Source: a virus
Taxonomy: Duplodnaviria; Heunggongvirae; Uroviricota; Caudoviricetes
Virus record (IMG/VR): IMGVR_UViG_3300035696_000002
Reading direction: 5' to 3' (one strand)
Length of the DNA stretch: 64,000 nucleotides
Position 1 is the stretch's first letter, and each line of letters starts with the position of its first letter. The translations under genes were made by a program, and so were the position numbers. The notes under the pieces are model-generated. The model did not search any database, was not told the DNA's origin, and saw nothing but the letters and a program-made list of their open reading frames with translations. This document shows positions 6,131 through 54,359 of the stretch, piece by piece.

Positions 6131-9100
6131 TTACTGACCCGGAATCAATTGTGTTGGAATCGGGTTAGTGGCCGCTAGGCGAATAGCGGTATCGCTATAG
6201 ACCCTCCACTTGAAGGAACCCGTAACGTTTACACCCGAATCCGTTACCGAAAGGGATAGGGTGTTGTCTCCAATGACTCCTGAGGAGAAACTACCGTTCA
6301 ATTCAATCAAACATGTGCCAGTACCCGTATCCAAACCACCGGACGGGATTGACGCCGTAATGCCTGACGTTCCAACCGAAAGGGTGATCTGGCTCGGGTT
6401 GGTGGAAACAACCCCCGTGGCGACGACGAAGAATGAGTCGTTTGGACGCGGCGTGATCGAACTCACGCTGCCCTGTGCCACGAAGCCGATGTATCCATAG
6501 TTCGTGCTGTCCACGTAATCCGGCCCGGCCTGAAGCGTAAGCCCGGCGATGACCTGCAAGTTCAAGCTCTTGTCCACGTGAGCACCGATGTTGTCAGTGA
6601 CACGGAAGATGATCGGCTTATTGAAGCCAGTCAGACTCGTAGTACCTGTGATCGCACCCGTCGATGGATTCAATGCAAGGCCCGTGGGCAGGTTGTTTGC
6701 CGAGGACGGGGAGATCGACCATGTGTACGGAGTCGTACCACCAGTTGCAGCCAGCGTAAGCGAGTACGGACGGCCCGAGGTTGCGTTCGGCAATGTAGCC
6801 GTCGTAATAGTCAACGACGAGGACTGAATCTGGAATTGCAAAGTTGCTGATGCAGTATCCGCAGGTGACAGAGCATCCGCGACGTGCACGGTAAGCTGTC
6901 CGGTGTACGCGGCTGGCGGGTTCGCGGCCAGCAACAGACCTGAACTGGAGATTGAAATTGTGGCCAAATCTCCTGCGGGCAGTGCCGGATTGAAATCGCC
7001 TGCGACGACGTTCGACCACACGAACGGCTGCACCAGTGCAGGCTGACCGTTGCTGGTTGCCGTAAGCTGTGTCGAAGTTGAAGCCCCGATAATCGCGGGC
7101 GGTAGCGTCGTTGTCGTCACCTTCAGACTGCTCGTGGTTGTCAACAGCAGAATAGCCTGAGCAGAGTTTCCGTTCTTGTCCACCGCAATGACCTTCACCG
7201 CGAGAGGATTGCTTGGCGGAATCTGTCCGGTGTATACGCCAGAGATGGTTGCAGTCTGACCATTGTTTGTTGCAGTCGCCTGAAGCACCAAGCCTGCCGG
7301 AAGCGGGTTTGGTGAGTCTGACGTAACCTGCCACGACACTGGCGTAGTGTACGGGCCAGACAACGACAAGGTACCAAGATACGAAGCACCACGATCAATC
7401 GGGCCGACGCCACTGGTGACGATGAGCATGCCTGTAGCAGACCCGGTCTGTAGGGTGTACGTCTGTGTTGCAGTGTGTACCCCGGAATCGTGCACAGTGA
7501 CTTGCAATGGCGTGGTGAATCCAGTCACGCTGGTCACACCTGAGAACACGCCCGTCGAACCGTCGAAAGCGATGCCCGACAACCCAGCAATCGGGAAAGT
7601 CGGCACGGTCGTCCACGTATAGGGCGGTGTTCCACCAATCGCCGTCATGGCGAACGTGTAGCTCTGCCCCGGAACAATCGTCGGGATAGCCTGTGTCGTA
7701 ATCGTCAACGTATCATTGACGGCAACAGTCAGAACGGCCTGCGTCGAAGCTCCACGAACATCCGTGAGGATGAATGTGTCGTTTTCCGTGGTCGTATCCG
7801 GTGCAGTCGTTGTGCCGGAGATCAGGCCACTGGAACTCAGAGTCAGTCCGGGGAACGTTGGGTTCAGACCGCCCGGCCACTGTGGCGAAGACCAAGTGTA
7901 CGGCTGAATGCCGCCTGTGCCTTGTAGCAAGAACGAGTAGGGAACCCCCGTGATGAGTGTAGGAATCTGCGTGGTTACGATGCTCAACGGGCTCACGTAG
8001 TCCACAAAGAGACGGTGATACAAGTACGAATGGTGCCCGTTTGTGTCGGGAACGTTGAACCACAGATCGAAGTACCCAGCCTCAGTCGGGGTGCCAACGA
8101 TGTCGATACCCAGACCCGAGATGTCCACCTGAAGTGTCAAGCCCTGTGGCAGGCTGCCGTACAGGAGCGTGGGCGGAGCCAGCGGCACTGTGGCCGAGGA
8201 CACCAAGGCATTCGTTCCGTTGATCGGGGCACCAATCTGCGGAGCAGGCGTGATGTTGTTGATGTTGTCGATCAACAGGTAGTCGTTGCTGACTGTCGTC
8301 CAGTTGATTGTGACTGTGCCGTGAACCGTGCCAGTTGAATCAATATACTGAATGGTGCTCTGGGGAACTCCGGTGCCGACAAGCGTGCCGTAGATCAAGC
8401 CAGTGTTGGAGTCCAGTGAGAGACCGGGCGGCAAGGACGAGCCCGGAGCCACGATGACACTGTAGGCCGTGTTCTTCGCAATGTTTGGCGAGTTGAAATA
8501 TGGCTTCTGGGGATTCAACCCAACGAAATCGCCGACCACATACGGACGAGTGTAGGTGTTGACGATTCCAAGATCGCCGGGGACTGCCTGATCGTCGTGG
8601 CACACGAAGGTGTACTCGCGGGAGACCTGTCCCACGTTGACGCTGCCCTGCTGGAGAACGAGCGGGATGCGGAACTGTGAGTTGCGGAACGTCGAACTCA
8701 GGGCTGGCGGATTCCCCGGAGGCCCAGCAACTTCGACGATTTGGTTGACGTTATCGACCGAAACCGTTAGACCGTTCGGTAGCACAACAGGCTGCTGCGG
8801 TGCCAGAGTCAAACCGTTGAAATTTCCAACGACTGGGAAAATGATCGAAGTCGTATCGTTGTAGTCCCAGTAGTGATCGAAGAAAGCCTCTTCGATTCGG
8901 ATGCTGCTTACGGTCGGCTGCACCTGATAACTGAACTGCTGGTTCACCGTTGTACTGTTTGAGTCGCTGGCAGTCAGAGTGAACGTGTGAGTCCCGGTCT
9001 GAAGATCGTTCGGGTCTACCATGACCTCGACCTGACCATCCACCAGCTTCACAGCCTGTGTGGCAGGAACCTGAATCACGAGAACCTTGGATACCGAATT

Positions 9101-33689: not shown

Positions 33690-36600
33690 TAGCGTTTAAC
33701 TCCTGAGAGTCCGGGCGGGTTACCTGAGCCCGGCTGCGGCGGCGTTGGCCCGGCCCCGCCAGTCGTAGCGGAGTCATCCGTCGATCTGAAACTGCTGGGA
33801 TCAATCGGAGAGATGTGGGAAATGTCCGCACTGTACTGATTGATCGTGATCTGATACATCTTCTGGCCATACATGCCCGTAACAGGCTTCGCCGTGATCT
33901 GACCCGTACCCTGAAGTTTGTTGAGAGCATCCACGAGGTCTTGATTGCCCGCAAGGTCTTGGTTCTTGAACGTCAGGGTGTTGATGCCACTGCCCATGGC
34001 TCCGGGCATCGCAGAGACGGCCTTGTAAACATCCATGGAGCTAACCATGTTGCCGCCCTTGGTGACTTCAGCAATGGCTTGCTTCCGGTCGTTGGCTTTT
34101 TTGTCTTCCGTATCGACGTACTTGGAGTACAGCTTATTAAGCTGATCCTTCATGTCAGACGTGAGGGTCGAGGATGAAAGCTCACCGAGGCCGTCATTAA
34201 CATCGGACAATTCTTGATGGGCCGCTGAAAGCTGTTTCTTCTGATCTTCACTGAGATCACCAATCTTTTCGAGTTGGTCGATCTGCCCCTGCAACGCAGC
34301 TTTCTGATCTTCCAAAGCGACAGACAGATTTTCCAATCCCTTGCCTTTGTCTTTCGCTGCAAGGTCTTTCAACATTTCTGAGGCTGGCTTGGCTTCACCA
34401 ATCTTTTTGAAGATGCCGCCAGTGTAATCAACGAGGCGATTCATCCACGTCGAGAATGCGTTTGCAACCATGTCGGCTGAGGTCTGAGTCAGGCGGGCAA
34501 CCTTAGCCGCTTGATCGCGAGCGGCGTTCTTTTGTGCTTGTGTGGCTTTTGTATCAGCAGCCATCTGGTTGACCAACAAATCGTTCATCTGGTCGGAGGC
34601 CGCTAAGCTCAACACGGAGTTGCCGAGGTTCTTTTCGTTGTCCTTCAGGAATTTCTTCAGGTAGACACCGTAGTTGGAGATGCCCTTAACCTGAATCGGA
34701 ACACCCTGCTTGTGCAGTCCTTCGACGATGAGCTTTGCCTGATCTTCCGGCAGGGCACCCTCTTGGGCCGACTTCAAGAAACCACGAGCACCGCCCATCA
34801 AGGCGTCGCGTTGCTTCTGGGCATAGGCTTCTGGGGTTTCACCGAACACTTTAGCGACGCCGGACAAGGTACCGAGAGCATTATCCGAGAGGGCCTTCCC
34901 CTGCAAGAACTGCTTCATATCCATCCCGGATGTTGAAGCGGCCTGCTGCAATGCAGTTCGAGCTACGATGGTCGAAGCGACCGGGCTCTTGCCGTACAAT
35001 TCCTGATAGAACGCACCACCGACACCGCCGCCTGCACCAGCACGGAGGCCCTGCAACTGCGTCATCATCTGTGTCAGCTTCTCAAGGTGCCCAGTCCACA
35101 ACTTCTTTTGCTCATCAGGAAGCTCCGACGCGGCCATCGTCATACTTTGGATAGCCTCGGTCATCTTCCCAGCATCACCACTTTCAAACGCACCACGAAC
35201 CGAAGCAACGTCAATATTCAACGGGGGCAGCCCGCCCTTTTCCGTTGGGATACTCATCTGGCCGAGGACTTCAGCCGCGTTTGCCGCGAGTTGTTTCTGG
35301 AATGTGCCGGAGGCCTTCTTAAACTCGGGCTGGGCCTTGTCGATGATGTAAGCTTCAGGTGCGATATCACGTTTCGTGCTGGCACCAGTGAGGGTGTCCA
35401 AGTACTCTTGCAGGTCGTCAGCCGTATCAACACCCGTCTTCCCCAGAACCATCAAAACATTTGTGACCTGTTCGATGGACTTGTTCATGCGGGTAAAGTG
35501 TTCCAACACACCGTCAAGGAGGGAGATGTATTTCGTGTAGCTAAGGCCCGCTGCCTTGGCCCCCTTCTGAACTCCAAGGAAGAAATCGTCCGTCTGGTCA
35601 AGAGCAACCTGATATTTTGTCAGGAGCTTCATAATCTGCTCAACTGACTGCACATCGCTCATGCCAAGAAGACGGCCAGTCGTCGCGGCAGTACGCTGAA
35701 TCATACCGAAAGAGCCGGGAGCAAACTGATTGCCCGCCAATTTCTGGGCGTTCTCGCCGCCGACTTCAGGCAATGCGTACCCTGATTCGCCAACGGCCTG
35801 AGCCATTTTCATGTTTCGCTCAAAGCTCAAACCTAACTGGGTGTACCCGAGACCACCGGGCGTCAGAGCCGCACGGGCATTAGCGAAACCCTCAGCACCG
35901 GGGGCGTAGCCAAAGAGGCCAGCATTACCTAGACTCTCTTCCATTTTTTGCCGCTGTTGAGCGAGAGCATCCCACGCCTTAACCGCATACTCAGCGGCCT
36001 TTTTCAACGCGATAATGTAGGGGGCGGCTTCCATGGCAGCATCGGCAACGCCGCTGAGCCCGCTTTCGACGGCACCCATCACGCCTGTAGTCTCACCGCC
36101 AGCCAAAGCTTCATACGCCTTCGTCGCACCCTCAACGTCGGCTCCCTCAGGCAAAAGCCCGGCCTTGGCCATTTCACCTTGCTTGAAAATCTGGGCTTTC
36201 TTACCCGTCAGCCCCATCTCTTTTGCCACAGCTTCGATGCTATCCGAAGTTACTTCTTTTCCTCTGAGGCCTAGTTTTGTGATCGCAGCGGACTTCTGTC
36301 CCTTAAACTCTGCACCACGCTGTCTCTGTGTGTCTTCGATGGCAGTCTTAACATCGGCAGATCGTTTCTGGAGGTCTTGAATTTCTTTGAGGAATTTGGG
36401 GTTGACACCCATAGCACTCAGGGTTTTGCTGATCCCATCCAACTCACGGGAGAAGCCCTTCAACTCCAGCTTCTTTGCCACGTCAACAAGCTTACCCATA
36501 CCAATCGCACTGCGTTGAATCGAGCGGCCATACTTCTCCTGCTCATCCGCAGTGTACTTCGTTTCTTTGGCCAACTCAGCCTGTTCCTCTTTCAGTCGAG

Positions 36601-49452: not shown

Positions 49453-49481
49453 ATAAAACGAAATCAGAGACTTCCGGGGAC
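49428..49481 (+). promoter_or_regulatory. Antiterminator hairpin
   Basis: GTCCTCGGAG(49428-37)/TTCCGGGGAC(49472-81) plus TGATTTCG(49440-47)/CGAAATCA(49459-66); shares 49476-81 with the terminator. Confidence 0.7.
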
Positions 49482-49508
49482 GCCGAAAACGGCGTCCTTT
49501 TTGTTTTT
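49476..49508 (+). terminator. Intrinsic terminator directly before the first tRNA
   Basis: GGACGCCG-AAAA-CGGCGTCC followed by TTTTTGTTTTT. Confidence 0.9.
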
Positions 49509-49584
49509 GCACTGTTAGTTCAGCGGTTAGAACGCTTGCTCGACAAGCAAGAGGTCGGAGGTTCGAATCCTCCACGGTGCACCA
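49509..49584 (+). tRNA. tRNA-Val(GAC)
   Basis: Cloverleaf, loop TC-GAC-AA (C33), CCA encoded. Confidence 0.92.
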
Positions 49585-49590
49585 AGTTTC

Positions 49591-49665
49591 GCGGGCTTAG
49601 CTCAGTGGTAGAGCGGTACCTTGCCAAGGTACAGGTCGCGGGTTCGAGCCCCGCAGCCCGCTCCA
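49591..49665 (+). tRNA. tRNA-Gly(GCC)
   Basis: Cloverleaf, TT-GCC-AA, TCCA end. Confidence 0.95.
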
Positions 49666-49681
49666 TTTTGAAGGGTTGACC

Positions 49682-50395
49682 ATGGAACAACTGTACGGTG
49701 TCAACGGGTTGATTTTCTGGACGGAGCGAGAGATCGCGACCCGCAAGCTGGTTGAAAGTCATTTGGTTCAGGCGTTGAAAGACAGCCTGAAAAAGATGAA
49801 CCGGGCGTGGGAGTTCTTCCAAGTGGAGGCCCCAATTTTGACGCCGAGCGAGTTTGTGAACAAGAACTACTCGAAGGATGACATGTATGCCGTCGAGCAG
49901 AAGTTTGGCGACACGTTACAGGAAGCGAACAACCCGGCAGTGCAGTTGATTGCCCGGCCAGAAACAACGATGGGCTCGTATGAGTTCGCAAGATACTTGC
50001 TGAACCCGCACAACGAGCAGAAAGTGCGAATGCCCCTCGTGGTTTGGCAACATGGCAAAAGTTTTCGCCGGGAGCAGGATCAGCCGACGAAGTTCATGCG
50101 GTTGAAAGAGTTTTACCAGTTGGAGTTTCAATGCATTTATTCTCCAACGACCGGGATGGATTACGCGGCACATGTGATCCCGGATATGGCGGCAGCGATG
50201 CAGCAGTTGGTCGGCGAATGTAAGATCGTGGCCAGTGATCGTTTGCCGGATTACTCAGAATGCACGATGGATATTGAGCACAACAGTGGTATGGAACTTT
50301 GCTCGATCTCGTTGCGAAAAGATTTTGAAGGTGCGAAGGTTCTGGAGATTGCAGTCGGAACTGATCGCGTGGTGACAAAGTTTTTGGGGCTATAG
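49682..50395 (+). CDS. Class II aminoacyl-tRNA synthetase catalytic core, GlyRS (alpha2-type)-like, no anticodon-binding domain
   Basis: 237 aa; APILTP, RPETT, motif 2 QHGKSFRRE...MRLKEFYQLEFQ, ELCSISLRKDF, motif 3 LEIAVGTDR then stop. Confidence 0.8.
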   Translation: MEQLYGVNGLIFWTEREIATRKLVESHLVQALKDSLKKMNRAWEFFQVEAPILTPSEFVNKNYSKDDMYAVEQKFGDTLQEANNPAVQLIARPETTMGSYEFARYLLNPHNEQKVRMPLVVWQHGKSFRREQDQPTKFMRLKEFYQLEFQCIYSPTTGMDYAAHVIPDMAAAMQQLVGECKIVASDRLPDYSECTMDIEHNSGMELCSISLRKDFEGAKVLEIAVGTDRVVTKFLGL

Positions 50396-50462
50396 CTCAG
50401 TCTGGGAGAGCGGGTGCTTTGCAAGCATCAGGTCGTCGGTTCGAGCCCGACTAGCTCCACCA
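50386..50462 (+). tRNA. tRNA-Ala(UGC)
   Basis: G3-U70, TT-TGC-AA, ACCA; overlaps last 10 nt of aaRS-like ORF. Confidence 0.95.
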
Positions 50463-50474
50463 AGTTTACAATGC

Positions 50475-50551
50475 GGGGCCGTGGTGTAGAGGCCTAACAT
50501 GCATCCCTGTCACGGATGAGATCGCGGGTTCGAATCCCGTCGTCCCCGCCA
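50475..50551 (+). tRNA. tRNA-Asp(GUC)
   Basis: CT-GTC-AC, GCCA. Confidence 0.93.
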
Positions 50552-50649
50552 AATTTGATCGTGCCGTCTCGGACGGCGATAGCAGCCGGAGGCCAAAAGG
50601 CCTACGGTGTTGGGGCGGCTGGCCCCTTGAGCATCCGAGCTAAATTTCT

Positions 50650-50726
50650 GGTGCGGTAGCCAAGACGGTAAGGCGTCTGCCTGCAAAGCAGATCATGCGT
50701 CGGTTCGATTCCGACCCGTACCTCCA
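50650..50726 (+). tRNA. tRNA-Cys(GCA)
   Basis: CT-GCA-AA, TCCA. Confidence 0.93.
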
Positions 50727-50731
50727 AGTTT

Positions 50732-50806
50732 GGGCCAGTAGCATAACTGGGAATGCATCTCGCTTGCAACGAGAAAGAACGGGTTCGAATCCCGCTGTGT
50801 CCACCA
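50732..50806 (+). tRNA. tRNA-Ala(UGC), atypical acceptor stem
   Basis: CT-TGC-AA, G3-U70, ACCA; bulged acceptor GGGCCAG/CTGTGTCC. Confidence 0.8.
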
Positions 50807-50894
50807 ATTCGAGGGTGCCTGCGAATAACCCCAAATAAGCAGGTCTGTGAGAGCAATTCGGCGTATGTCTCACACCCTCTCACCGTTCGATGTA

Positions 50895-50969
50895 AGCGGC
50901 GTAGCCAAGTGGTAAGGTAGAGGTCTGCAAAACCTTTAGTCGCGGGTTCGATTCCCGTCGCCGCTTCCA
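50895..50969 (+). tRNA. tRNA-Cys(GCA), second copy
   Basis: CT-GCA-AA, TCCA. Confidence 0.9.
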
Positions 50970-50975
50970 AGTTTT

Positions 50976-51292
50976 GTGCCGAACCGGATGATCGCCGCCT
51001 GTTTCAGCAGGGGGAGGAAAGTCCGGGCTCCATAGAACAGCGTACCGGATAACGTCCGGGCATTCGTGAAGCGAAAGCGGATCGGGTGACGATTAGAGCT
51101 ACAGAGACGAGTCGGCGAAAGCCGGGTGAAACGAGCAATCTCTACGCGGAGCAATCTCAAATAGGCCGTGAGCCTCTGTTCGGGGCGTTATCAAACGGCG
51201 GGTTGAGAGCTTGAGCCAATCGGCAACGGTTGGCCTAGACGAATGATCGTCGCGTCGCAAGACGTACAGAACCCGGCTTATAGGTTCGGCAC
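50976..51292 (+). ncRNA. rnpB: RNase P RNA, compact bacterial type A-like
   Basis: P1 GTGCCGAACC/GGTTCGGCAC, GAGGAAAGTCCGGGCTCC, ACAGA, GGTGAAAC, GGAGCAA, ACAGAACCCGGCTTAT. Confidence 0.95.
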
Positions 51293-51302
51293 AAATTTTA
51301 AC

Positions 51303-51378
51303 GCGGACATCGCCTAGCGGCTATGGCCTCTGCCTTCCAAGCAGTTGATCGCGGGTTCGAGTCCCGCTGTCCGCTCCA
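51303..51378 (+). tRNA. tRNA-Gly(UCC)
   Basis: CT-TCC-AA, TCCA. Confidence 0.92.
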
Positions 51379-51439
51379 TATCCAGACGCCATAGGCTTGT
51401 TCGGTTGGCGGCATCCGGTGGAAGCCCGGAAACAAGTTT

Positions 51440-51515
51440 GGGGTCGTAGTTCAGTTGGGAGAACGCTTCCATGGCATGGAAGAGGTCAGGGGTTCAACTC
51501 CCCTCGGCTCCACCA
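51440..51515 (+). tRNA. tRNA-Ala(GGC)
   Basis: AT-GGC-AT, G3-U70, ACCA. Confidence 0.95.
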
Positions 51516-51520
51516 AAATT

Positions 51521-51619
51521 AACATCTGCCTATAAGCCAAGCGGCGAAAGCCGGGGCAGAGACCGACCGAAAGGCGTTCACCCATGAGTGAACATACTGA
51601 AGAGTCCTTGGCAGTTGTT
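51521..51619 (+). ncRNA. Candidate multi-hairpin RNA between tRNAs
   Basis: Closing AACA-CTGCC/GGCAG-TGTT; CGGC-GAAA-GCCG, CC-GAAA-GG, GTTCAC/GTGAAC. Confidence 0.45.
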
Positions 51620-51620
51620 T

Positions 51621-51698
51621 GGCCCGGTCGTCTACGTTCGGTTAGGACATCAGCCTTTCAAGCTGAAAAAAGGGGATCGTCGCCCCTGCGGGCTACCA
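51621..51698 (+). tRNA. tRNA-Glu(UUC), atypical T loop
   Basis: CT-TTC-AA, T loop ATCGTCG, ACCA. Confidence 0.85.
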
Positions 51699-51701
51699 AA
51701 T

Positions 51702-51837
51702 TTGTGTGATCCACGCGGACTCCCTTGAGTGGGTAGAAAAGCGTCGTAGCTGCGGCTGCGAGATTCGATACCGAGAGGTCGTTGGTTCCGGGAAACCCGA
51801 ATCAATCGTGGTGAAAGCCGACCGACTGGGACACACA
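51702..51837 (+). ncRNA. Candidate multi-hairpin RNA
   Basis: Closing TGTGTG-ATCCA/TGGGACACACA; TCGTAGC/GCTGCGA, GGTCG/CGACC, TTGGTTC-CGGG/CCCG-AATCAA. Confidence 0.45.
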
Positions 51838-51871
51838 GTTTTCGATTGCAGGGGGATGCTATGACACAGCA

Positions 51872-51987
51872 GGACGCTATTGGTCGTGTCCCGGTTGCGG
51901 GGTACGTCGAGAAATAAAAACCGGAGAACGACGGCACATCCGTTTTCTTCGCAGCAAGAAGAAACGGCTCCGTAAGAAGTGGCGTCC
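51872..51987 (+). ncRNA. Candidate multi-hairpin RNA
   Basis: Closing GGACGCTATT/AGTGGCGTCC; GTCGT/ACGAC, CCGGTT/AACCGG, CCGTTT-TCTT/AAGA-AAACGG. Confidence 0.4.
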
Positions 51988-52181
51988 GACTCACGAGGGC
52001 GGTTCGGAGAGGTACTGGCGAACTGTTGTTTTCACACCTAAGTGGGTGTGGTGCTGGCGTCTCACTTGTCAGGTACGATTTGAAGTGAAGTGGTTGATCG
52101 AGTGTGGGCTCACTGGGAATGAGCCGTTGCCGTTTGGCGAGAAACTGAATCGCTACACCGATCCAGATTCAGATTTGTAAT

Positions 52182-52257
52182 GCGGGAATAACTCAGTTGG
52201 TAGAGTGCTTGCTTCCCAAGCAAGATGTCGCGGGTTCGAGTCCCGTTTCCCGCTCCA
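52182..52257 (+). tRNA. tRNA-Gly(CCC)
   Basis: TT-CCC-AA, TCCA. Confidence 0.95.
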
Positions 52258-52323
52258 AGATTTAGGGGAGGCTCCGTTGTTGGACGGAGGTCAAAACTGG
52301 AGTCACGCCCATCCTCCCCAATT

Positions 52324-52401
52324 GCACTGTTAGCTCAGTCCGGTTAGAGCGTTCGCTTCACACGCGAAAGGTCGCAGGTTCGAGTCCTGCACGGTGCACC
52401 A
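52324..52401 (+). tRNA. tRNA-Val(CAC)
   Basis: TT-CAC-AC, ACCA. Confidence 0.93.
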
Positions 52402-52407
52402 AGTTTC

Positions 52408-52483
52408 GGGGCTGTAGCTCAGTTGGGAGAGCGTTCGCTTCGCACGCGAAAGGTCACGGGTTCAACTCCCGTTAGCTCCACCA
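52408..52483 (+). tRNA. tRNA-Ala(CGC)
   Basis: TT-CGC-AC, G3-U70, ACCA. Confidence 0.93.
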
Positions 52484-52484
52484 G

Positions 52485-52614
52485 TTTCGGTCTGGGCGGC
52501 GTATGCCGCAGCGGTCATAGGCGACCGTAAATAGGAAAGCACCCAAGGTTGGAAAGGCCCGTTCGATTCGGGAGAAGTTGCTTCTGGGGATGGTAAGACA
52601 ACCTACGACCGAAA
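52485..52614 (+). ncRNA. RNA with circularly permuted tRNA-like domain (YrlA-like layout)
   Basis: Terminal stem TTTCGGTC/GACCGAAA; AGGTTG/CAACCT encloses T arm CCCG-TTCGATT-CGGG, hairpin AGAAG/CTTCT, D-like TGGTAAGA. Confidence 0.5.
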
Positions 52615-52621
52615 ATTTTTA

Positions 52622-52683
52622 GGGCGGGTCACGGCGGGTAGCCAATGTGCACAACGCGGGTTCGATTCCCGTTCCGTCCACCA
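52622..52683 (+). ncRNA. 62-nt mini tRNA-Ala-like RNA lacking a normal anticodon arm
   Basis: GGGCGGG/TCCGTCC (G3-U70), ACCA, canonical T arm GCGGG-TTCGATT-CCCGT. Confidence 0.7.
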
Positions 52684-52721
52684 AGTTTCTAGCCTTTGCC
52701 GCAGTGCTGGAATTTTCAAAT

Positions 52722-52776
52722 GGGCGACCTAGTGGTAAGGCGGCTTAATGGGGTGCCGATTCCCCATCGTCCACCA
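52722..52776 (+). ncRNA. 55-nt mini tRNA-Ala-like RNA with no anticodon arm
   Basis: GGGCGA/TCGTCC (G3-U), ACCA, D arm CCT-AGTGGTA-AGG, T-like arm TGGGG-TGCCGATT-CCCCA. Confidence 0.65.
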
Positions 52777-52783
52777 AGTTTTT

Positions 52784-52859
52784 ACGCGGGTAGCTTAGCG
52801 GCTAAAGCGGTGCCCTTACAAGACACTCATCGTGGGTTCGAGTCCCACCCTGCGTACCA
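52784..52859 (+). tRNA. tRNA-Val(UAC)
   Basis: CT-TAC-AA, ACCA. Confidence 0.9.
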
Positions 52860-52863
52860 AGTT

Positions 52864-53043
52864 ATGAACGAAGAGCAGGTCTGGAAGTTTTACGCAGAGA
52901 GGTTTTGGACGCCCTGTCAGCACGTGAGACAATGCGTCGGCCTGTGTGCCCTCTGCTTGGAACAGACCGTGAAGATGTACGAGAATTTCGTTCCACAGGT
53001 TGTTTCGATAGGCTGTCCGGGGAATACGTCGAATACCCGGTAG
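52864..53043 (+). CDS. Possible small Cys-rich protein (59 aa)
   Basis: MNEEQVWKFY...CQH..C...CALC; no RBS; 3' part overlaps hairpins. Confidence 0.3.
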   Translation: MNEEQVWKFYAERFWTPCQHVRQCVGLCALCLEQTVKMYENFVPQVVSIGCPGNTSNTR

Positions 53044-53161
53044 GACTGATGGAGGAGACGGCTGCAACCGCGAGACCATTCAGTGTTGGCAACGACCTAG
53101 ATCGAAGCGATTGCATAATGCCGCCCGCTTGCAGGTGGGTTGAAAAGCAATCGCAGAGTTT

Positions 53162-53239
53162 GGCCCTGTCGTCTACGGAAGGCTAGGACACGACCCTCTC
53201 AAGGTTGAAAACCGGGTTCGACCCCCGGTAGGGCTACCA
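53162..53239 (+). tRNA. tRNA-Glu(CUC)
   Basis: CT-CTC-AA, ACCA. Confidence 0.9.
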
Positions 53240-53245
53240 AATTTC

Positions 53246-53322
53246 GGGGACGTAGCTTAACTGGTTAGAGCGTCATCCTGTCACGGTGAGAGGTACGGGT
53301 TCAACTCCCGCCGTCCCCGCCA
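53246..53322 (+). tRNA. tRNA-Asp(GUC), second copy
   Basis: CT-GTC-AC, GCCA. Confidence 0.92.
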
Positions 53323-53621: not shown

Positions 53622-54359
53622 ATGCGTCTCCAGCTAATCAGCGACCTTCATACCGAGTTCTACGAGAACGTGCTCGAAATGTGTTTGAGCATCGAGATCG
53701 TGCCTGATCTTGATTTTCTCGTCATCGCCGGAGACCTCGTATCCGGGATGCAGTCCCTTGAGGAAGTGCGAGCCGCTTTCTCATTCTTCGCCAAGAAAGC
53801 CAAGCACGTGCTCTACGTGTACGGCAACCACGAATATTACAACAGCAGTGGCCCGGCTACGGAATTCAGAATCAAGTCCGTGGTGCCCGCGAACGTGCAC
53901 ATCTTGGACAACAACGAGATAACGCTTGAAGGAATTCATTTCTACGGCGGGGCGATGTGGTTCACCCGCGTCATCAACCCACTGGATGATCTCAACAAAT
54001 TTGGCATGTCCGACTTCACTCTGATTCAGGGCCTTGAGTCGTGGGTGTACAAGACCAACGCCCAGTTCACTGATCGGGGCCGGAGTCTTGTCAAGCCGGA
54101 AACAATCGTTATCACGCACCACCTGCCGCACCCGCAGAGCATCAATCCACGCTTCCGTGGCAGCAGCCTCAACCCGTGGTTCCTGTGCGACCAGACACGA
54201 ATGATCGCGATCAACAAGCCACGATTCTGGTTGCACGGGCACACGCACGACGCCTGCGATTACTTCGTCTACAACACGCATGTGATCTGCAACCCCTACG
54301 CCTACCCGCGTGAGCGAATGATGAAGGGAGTGTACAAACCTGTGGTGATCGAAGTATGA
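53622..54359 (+). CDS. Calcineurin-like metallophosphoesterase
   Basis: SDLH, AGD, GNHE, THH, HGHTH motifs. Confidence 0.92.
   Translation: MRLQLISDLHTEFYENVLEMCLSIEIVPDLDFLVIAGDLVSGMQSLEEVRAAFSFFAKKAKHVLYVYGNHEYYNSSGPATEFRIKSVVPANVHILDNNEITLEGIHFYGGAMWFTRVINPLDDLNKFGMSDFTLIQGLESWVYKTNAQFTDRGRSLVKPETIVITHHLPHPQSINPRFRGSSLNPWFLCDQTRMIAINKPRFWLHGHTHDACDYFVYNTHVICNPYAYPRERMMKGVYKPVVIEV

Follow-up and report, generated by a model that had tools for sequence, protein, structure and literature searches.

What are two short tandem elements, located inside a phage tRNA array, that carry the acceptor-end identity of an alanine tRNA and no anticodon arm? They lie in the window analysed here, a stretch of 64,000 nt corresponding to bases 254836-318835 of a 463,033-bp IMG/VR phage record (G+C 55%). 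To our knowledge, no synthetase except AlaRS needs only the acceptor stem in order to charge an RNA, which is why tmRNA is an alanine acceptor; tmRNA is also the only well-studied natural anticodon-less acceptor that we know of. Charging from the acceptor stem alone is established for minihelix-Ala and tmRNA, and a helix composed of acceptor and T arm with G3:U70 and A73-CCA is the minimal ligand of AlaRS, RNase P, the CCA enzyme and EF-Tu. The synthetic minihelix-Ala and microhelix-Ala of the Schimmel laboratory are reportedly AlaRS substrates of 24-35 nt. The two elements, called here mini-1 and mini-2, and their parts are as follows (positions in the window):

52622-52683, + strand: mini-1, an anticodon-less tRNA-like gene of 62 nt, read from the sequence
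52633-52643, + strand: D-like hairpin of mini-1, with a GGC/GCC stem and a GGGUA loop, present in the constrained fold
52647-52652, + strand: palindrome GUGCAC of mini-1, within the 12-nt linker that stands in for the anticodon arm
52656-52672, + strand: T arm of mini-1, with a 5-bp stem, a G49:U65 closing pair and the canonical UUCGAUU loop
52684-52721, + strand: spacer of 38 nt between the minis, with the AGUUU trailer at its start and the U-rich leader at its end
52722-52776, + strand: mini-2, an anticodon-less tRNA-like gene of 55 nt, read from the sequence and its folds
52731-52740, + strand: D-loop-like segment of mini-2, AGUGGUAAGG, with hardly any stem
52749-52766, + strand: T-like arm of mini-2, with a UGGGG/CCCCA stem and the non-canonical 8-nt loop UGCCGAUU

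The original prediction had described a 62-nt and a 55-nt element with the alanine identity set G1:C72, G2:C71, G3:U70 and A73 and without an anticodon arm. The coordinates and sequence features of both elements are confirmed in the sequence, and the identity set is present in both minis, neither of which has an anticodon arm. The acceptor of mini-1 is a perfect stem of 7 bp (G1:C72, G2:C71, G3:U70, C4:G69, G5:C68, G6:C67, G7:U66) and its 3' end consists of A73 and an encoded CCA. The coaxial acceptor/T helix comprises 7+5 = 12 bp, which corresponds to a full minihelix (12-bp helix, T loop and NCCA). The GG in the D-like loop resembles G18-G19 of tRNA. Mini-2 follows the minihelix only in part: its acceptor of 6 bp and T stem of 5 bp (or 5+6) give 11 stacked pairs instead of 12, and its T loop has 8 nt. 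About 7 nt separate its D-like segment from the T arm. The segment AGUGGUAAGG is an exact 10-nt match to the D loop of the phage tRNA-Cys, a similarity that is not significant (p about 0.05-0.07). We use the term alanine-type mini for an element of 45-66 nt in phage DNA which has a 7-bp acceptor with G3:U70, A73-CCA and a T arm, and which lacks an anticodon arm. Mini-1 shows every one of these features, and mini-2 all except the 7-bp stem and the canonical T loop. The 5-bp anticodon stem, 7-nt loop and NGC anticodon of a cloverleaf tRNA-Ala are found in neither. Neither mini is called by ARAGORN or by the Rfam tRNA model (RF00005: no hit at E up to 10; threshold 29 bits).

When the T arm and the 3' strand are given, random upstream sequence closes the stem of mini-1 in 2-3.5% of trials, and mini-1 is clearly non-random. 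The corresponding value for mini-2 is 9-13%; this element is non-random only once its context is added and is credible only jointly with that context. The fold energies alone are unremarkable (z -0.9 for mini-1 and -0.35 for mini-2), and for mini-1 the predicted MFE is an alternative fold, with the tRNA-like one 2.4 kcal/mol higher. The two minis agree at every position of the top five acceptor pairs and ACCA (14/14 nt), while the remainder can barely be aligned. This pattern, an identical AlaRS-read part in a divergent background, fits selection on the part read by AlaRS. The shared acceptor top could also reflect common descent, and since the minis are possibly paralogues, the G3:U70 common to both counts only once. 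Both carry the punctuation of most bona fide tRNAs of this phage, nearly all of which encode CCA, with a U-rich leader in front and usually a U-rich trailer of the type (A/G)UUU behind: each mini has a U-rich leader directly 5' and AGUUU after its CCA. Their C4:G69 pair differs from the G4:C69 of the canonical tRNA-Ala genes of the phage. The prediction that the elements are not random sequence is supported. The further claim, that they are not the product of random decay, is less secure: no relative examined keeps either mini and the T loop of mini-2 is defective.

The minis are located in a tRNA array together with all four tRNA-Ala genes of the phage:

49509-53322: GNN tRNA array with Val, Ala, Asp, Glu, Gly and Cys tRNAs
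49676-50395: class II synthetase core of 239 aa (PF00587; JGI label GlyRS), inside the array
50976-51296, + strand: RNase P RNA of bacterial class A, in the array (Rfam RF00010, 208 bits)
52408-52483, + strand: canonical tRNA-Ala(CGC), found by ARAGORN and Rfam, 138 nt upstream of mini-1
52484-52621, + strand: structured spacer of 138 nt between tRNA-Ala(CGC) and mini-1 (fold z -2.5)

The genome contains 68 tRNA genes and one tmRNA (ARAGORN), and its arrays are sorted by amino-acid group. Neither a sigma-70 promoter nor a + strand intrinsic terminator was found between the terminator at 49476-49499 and position 53691, so that the array is plausibly a single transcription unit. The RNase P RNA lies 1.3 kb upstream of mini-1 and belongs to a kit for tRNA handling and ribosome rescue that also includes a CCA-adding-enzyme family gene, a two-piece tmRNA and an ArfB-like GGQ protein. 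No gene for SmpB, AlaRS or Pth was found in the phage genome. Outside the window, the ArfB-like GGQ protein is encoded at 34041-34478 of the genome, the CCA-adding-enzyme family gene at 461074-461502, and three tRNAs with the amber-reading anticodon CUA at c238747-239065.

Several other elements of the array deserve mention. The RNase P RNA occupies the site between tRNA-Cys and tRNA-Gly(UCC), where a similar sequence of 333-365 nt occurs in the related phages L003, L324, L325 and L328. The GlyRS-like core lacks an anticodon-binding domain and has more than 1,000 homologues at E <1e-30, many of them on phage contigs of about 460 kb. The 138-nt spacer RNA is lineage-specific; a stem of 8 bp closes it, and a T-loop-like hairpin (CCCG UUCGAUU CGGG) lies inside. 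A structured spacer RNA of 66 nt (52258-52323) is identical over 60/60 nt in L328 (9163-9222), where the GlyRS-like protein is only 77% identical, and another of 98 nt (50552-50649) is found again in L003, L324, L325, L326 and L328, between tRNA-Ala(UGC) and the tRNA that follows. The tRNA-Ala(UGC) gene at 50732-50806 is itself non-canonical: it has G3:U70, its 3' acceptor strand contains a bulged U, and its T stem is 4 bp long. The bulge is retained with compensatory changes in L003 (7957-8031) and L326 (5698-5772), and at this position L324 and L328 have another, differently unusual tRNA-Ala(UGC). A public gene caller reports a gene immediately downstream of tRNA-Val(UAC) (52864-53043), an ORF of 59 aa with five cysteines; as a candidate partner protein it has no homologue among 5.8 billion proteins. 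A metallophosphoesterase gene lies 850 nt downstream of mini-2, and an identical protein is encoded on a 34.7-kb contig of the Logan assembly SRR9711195.

Our preferred reading, held tentatively and with slightly less than even confidence, is that the minis are processed, probably alanine-chargeable and non-decoding tRNA mimics in the GNN operon. They would be co-transcribed with the neighbouring tRNAs. By the substrate rules known for minihelices, RNase P, whose RNA the phage itself encodes, would cut the 5' end at G1, and the 3' end would be trimmed to CCA or repaired there by the phage CCA-adding enzyme. Mini-1 at least would be charged with alanine by the host AlaRS, which would read the acceptor stem only, and minihelix biochemistry suggests that the charged form can bind EF-Tu. 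The residual GG-bearing D-like segment of each mini could still form a tRNA elbow. Since they have no anticodon, the minis cannot decode and would act as non-decoding alanyl-acceptor mimics. As such they may engage the readers of the tRNA top half, i.e. AlaRS, EF-Tu and the CCA enzyme, and possibly the ribosome-rescue machinery.

Two known alanine acceptors can be compared with the minis. They share with minihelix-Ala the acceptor/T-arm helix, G3:U70, A73-CCA and the lack of an anticodon. However they are natural genes, keep a D-like/linker segment of 20-27 nt and have C4:G69. With the neighbouring phage tRNA-Ala(CGC) they share the operon, the punctuation and the identity elements at 1:72, 2:71, 3:70 and 73, and the T arm of mini-1 is canonical. 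They differ from it in the missing anticodon arm, the reduced D arm, C4:G69 in place of G4:C69 and the lack of detection by ARAGORN and RF00005.

The origin of the minis was addressed by comparison with the syntenic arrays of eight phages (L003, L324-L331). Relatives identified through the GlyRS-like protein include several phages of about 460 kb, with 75-79% identity. The compared phages have the same tRNA repertoire, with the same four full-length tRNA-Ala (UGC twice, GGC and CGC). The original prediction had named a full-length tRNA-Ala at this place in relatives as the mark of a recent deletion. We looked for one, and nothing occupies the place of the 300-nt block 52484-52783 in any of the relatives' arrays (8/8). 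As the relatives share the complete tRNA-Ala set and lack the block, the minis are additions to a full set and, on the evidence of these sequences, are not relics of the standard one. The absence of the block in all eight relatives also means that purifying selection over time is not supported. A DNA search for the minis in five whole related phage records returned only T-arm matches, and a pattern search in the same records returned only the insides of full-length tRNA-Ala genes. An origin from a tRNA or the tmRNA of the phage itself was considered and rejected: local alignments of the 5' parts of the minis are not significant (p 0.05-0.22), which argues that these are not fresh deletions of an extant gene.

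Two further unusual genes came to light during these comparisons. L326 contains at about 7693-7771 a divergent full-length tRNA-Ala(CGC) with G3:U70 and ACCA, unusual D and T loops and no ARAGORN call. A third mini, 57 nt long, lies outside the window between tRNA-Pro and tRNA-Gln (genome 347088-347144; L340 139-195). Its 7-bp stem contains A3:U70, its 3' end is G73-CCA, and where the anticodon arm would be there is the palindrome GUGUGGCCACAC; no relative of it was found in the five related records.

The first and main alternative is that the minis are non-functional by-products of tRNA-array rearrangement, i.e. internally deleted or chimeric tRNA copies that are still to be purged. We consider this somewhat unlikely. 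The array of this phage is rearranged with respect to its relatives, in which most tRNAs precede the GlyRS-like gene, and the 300-nt block is lineage-specific. Mini-2 has a short helix as well as its defective T loop, the internal GGCGGGUAGC of mini-1 reads like the 5' end of another tRNA, and the mini-1 family is too small for covariation to be read from it. However a perfect 7-bp acceptor such as that of mini-1 is not expected in a chimera of two genes, and no parent gene is recognisable in the genome. The identity of the acceptor top and ACCA in both minis, despite divergence elsewhere, also tells against by-products, as do near-identical helical cores in unrelated contigs.

These contigs were found in IMG/VR with a pattern anchored on GGGC...GUCCACCA and allowing a shortened body, after removal of the matches inside ARAGORN genes. 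The search gave 16 unique alanine-type minis of 48-64 nt, several of them within tRNA arrays, and a control pattern with G3:C70 only 3-4 sequences, at least one of which is a 3' tRNA fragment. Alanine-type minis recur in unrelated viral contigs of IMG/VR. The nearest to mini-1 is a 58-nt element in L099, L160 and L183, which has the same 5' acceptor strand, one change in the 3' strand, an identical T arm (17/17 nt) and GUGCAC as well. This element is solitary, preceded by a terminator and a hand-read -35/-10-like match and directly followed by an ORF. A 58-nt element in the metagenome sequence L202 also has the acceptor and the T arm of mini-1 (T arm 17/17 identical), with GCGCGC in place of GUGCAC. 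A pattern specific for mini-1 retrieved only L099, L160 and L183 from IMG/VR and L202 and the weaker L201 from metagenomes, and nothing from 185,579 reference genomes. The elements in L183 and L202 are followed by ORFs that have no relationship to one another and give no common partner gene. In a MAFFT alignment of 17 minis the 5' strands were not placed correctly. No relatives of mini-2 were found: a pattern for its T-loop variant in IMG/VR gave only chance matches, in unrelated sequence without a tRNA-like 5' half.

The frequency of anticodon-arm loss in general was assessed by a scan of IMG/VR contigs in which the acceptor was left free and a normal D arm had to be followed by a T arm within 5-14 nt. 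Among the matches listed (120 contigs, L341-L459), there are at least 96 unique elements, and in 82 of these 6/7 or more of the closing pairs form. The elements among the matches listed vary widely in their 3:70 pair and mostly lack CCA; only about 6 of the 82 possess an alanine-like acceptor, and G3:U70 occurs in none of the CCA-bearing ones (0/8). There is accordingly no enrichment of alanine identity among the matches listed, and the diversity of their acceptors indicates that alanine identity is no hallmark of the wider anticodon-less class. Like the minis, these elements (58-65 nt) have a closing 7-bp stem and a T arm and lack the anticodon stem-loop. They differ by a textbook D arm, by scores of 35-55 bits on RF00005, by mostly standing alone, often just upstream of an ORF, and by usually lacking CCA. 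As far as can be judged from sequence, loss of the anticodon arm is common among viral tRNA-like genes. We found no published description of viral anticodon-arm-less tRNA-like genes with a full D arm, and none of phage anticodon-less mini-tRNAs beyond the tmRNA reduced to its tRNA-like domain (TLD-only tmRNA).

This last type requires closer comparison, as the original prediction had proposed that the minis are tmRNA-TLD-like. The phage itself provides a reference:

genome c242851-243196, complement strand: phage tmRNA, permuted and in two pieces, with the tag ATAPKALAMAAAA

Its halves carry the TLD signature: the acceptor strand is followed by GGCUUCGACGG, and the T arm is preceded by GGAC. 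Both minis have G3:U70, A73 and a T arm without a coding region, the T loop of mini-2 being non-canonical. However the D-loop analogue GG(A/U)UUCGAC after the acceptor, which is present in the phage tmRNA, in mycobacteriophage DS6A and in L020, L046, L052 and L275, is absent from both. There is no P2a helix with GGAC/GAC before the T arm, and mini-1 has in this region only the unpaired palindrome GUGCAC followed by AAC. Mini-1 matches both ends of the Rfam tmRNA model with 14.1 bits, against a gathering threshold of 47, and mini-2 has no hit to this model. Positions 8-14 of mini-1 (UCACGGC) equal the 5' half of the phage tmRNA, a similarity that is not significant. The TLD-like reading was therefore abandoned. 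A bare tmRNA TLD is ruled out by the missing UUCGAC motif and P2a helix, and the phage has its own complete tmRNA. A permuted tmRNA made of the 3' half of mini-1 and the 5' half of mini-2 was likewise rejected: it reaches only 12.6-16 bits, and other tandem tRNAs of the array score alike.

Mycobacteriophage DS6A has a TLD-only tmRNA, listed as "standard, no CDS" (tmRNA Website; PMC4131195, PMC11915505). Its element (L339 179-261) is 83 nt long, with a GGUCGAC D-loop motif, a closed P2a helix and a CCA that is not fully encoded. It resembles the minis as a short phage RNA with G3:U70, A73 and a T arm, without an anticodon arm, and as a probably alanine-chargeable and non-decoding RNA. The minis are in contrast 55-62 nt long, encode CCA, have no TLD motifs and lie inside a tRNA array of a phage with a full tmRNA. 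Four IMG/VR elements of 66-69 nt (L020 4082-4147, L052 5242-5309, L046 10328-10396, and L275) carry the full TLD signature without a coding part. They contain GGAUUCGACG, form a closed P2a hairpin, have GGAC ahead of the T arm, and look like the TLD-only tmRNA of DS6A.

Derivation from tmRNA in a looser sense has also to be weighed. The minis would be tag-less, TLD-only tmRNA derivatives that, like the DS6A RNA, bind SmpB and either block host trans-translation or carry out rescue without tagging. The alanine acceptor, the T arm and the missing anticodon arm are as in the TLD, mini-1 scores better on the ends of the tmRNA model than on the tRNA model, and its positions 8-14 are shared with the tmRNA. 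TLD-only RNA has been reported to inhibit tmRNA in E. coli (PMC4131195, PMC11915505), and the phage also encodes the ArfB-like protein. We nevertheless regard this explanation as quite improbable in view of the motifs that the minis lack and DS6A and the four IMG/VR elements have, the low model score and the non-significant match to the tmRNA 5' half. Moreover the phage is without an SmpB gene, and titration of SmpB would disable its own tmRNA too. The minis thus fail the tests for membership that set TLD-only tmRNA apart, and they appear to be variants within a class that recurs in phages, distinct from a bare tRNA-like domain of tmRNA. They could nonetheless act on the same partners as a TLD-only tmRNA.

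A comparably small likelihood is given to the possibility that the minis are processing handles, i.e. minimal substrates for RNase P and 3' maturation that free the flanking 138-nt RNA, their charging being irrelevant. A handle of this sort is known for MALAT1, in the form of mascRNA. The array contains several structured spacer RNAs between its tRNAs, some conserved in relatives, and the 138-nt RNA that precedes mini-1 is well folded by prediction, with a 3' end that RNase P would generate by its cut at mini-1. The anticodon-less tRNA-like genes elsewhere have, among the matches listed, arbitrary acceptors and often no CCA, which is also compatible with handles. However the flanking real tRNAs would already do this job, and the tandem arrangement and the presence of G3:U70, A73 and CCA in both minis would be left unexplained. 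Finally, it is highly improbable that the minis are decoys for host toxins attacking the acceptor end or the aminoacyl group, or alanine donors for a non-ribosomal transferase: they keep exactly the parts that such enzymes read, and alanine identity is, from established AlaRS biology, the simplest route to a chargeable anticodon-less RNA, but the phage encodes no FemAB-type transferase, a decoy that acts stoichiometrically would do little against a catalytic toxin, and no link to defence or counter-defence genes was found in the window or the genome.

A last comparison concerns the bacterial Y RNA YrlA, whose tRNA-like domain is circularly permuted and tied to Ro60/Rsr. This domain (RF02553) is, like the minis, a tRNA mimic without an anticodon loop. 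Unlike YrlA, the minis are not permuted and give no YrlA hit, and the phage genome encodes no TROVE protein.

We return to the preferred reading of the minis as processed, non-decoding alanyl-acceptor mimics. A more specific version would make them a working chargeable class. An EF-Tu-delivered alanyl-mini might take part in the tag-free handling of stalled ribosomes together with tmRNA and the ArfB-like kit, or a charged decoy might neutralise host factors that read the acceptor end. We judge this version unlikely. TLD-only tmRNA and synthetic minihelix-Ala were known already, and no description of alanine-type minis in phage tRNA arrays was found in the literature; to these the present locus adds two different tandem minis inside an amino-acid-sorted tRNA operon. 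Caution is needed, as anticodon-less viral tRNA-like genes are common and, among the matches listed, mostly not of the alanine type, so that the alanine reading has to be tested and not assumed. If it is true, the minis would be a natural counterpart to the classic minihelix-Ala experiments. If phages maintain minimal alanine acceptors that are not tmRNA, these would represent an unexplored route to manipulate charging, EF-Tu, CCA repair and ribosome rescue. Should the chargeable-class reading hold, minimal alanine acceptors would have evolved in phages repeatedly and without descent from tmRNA.
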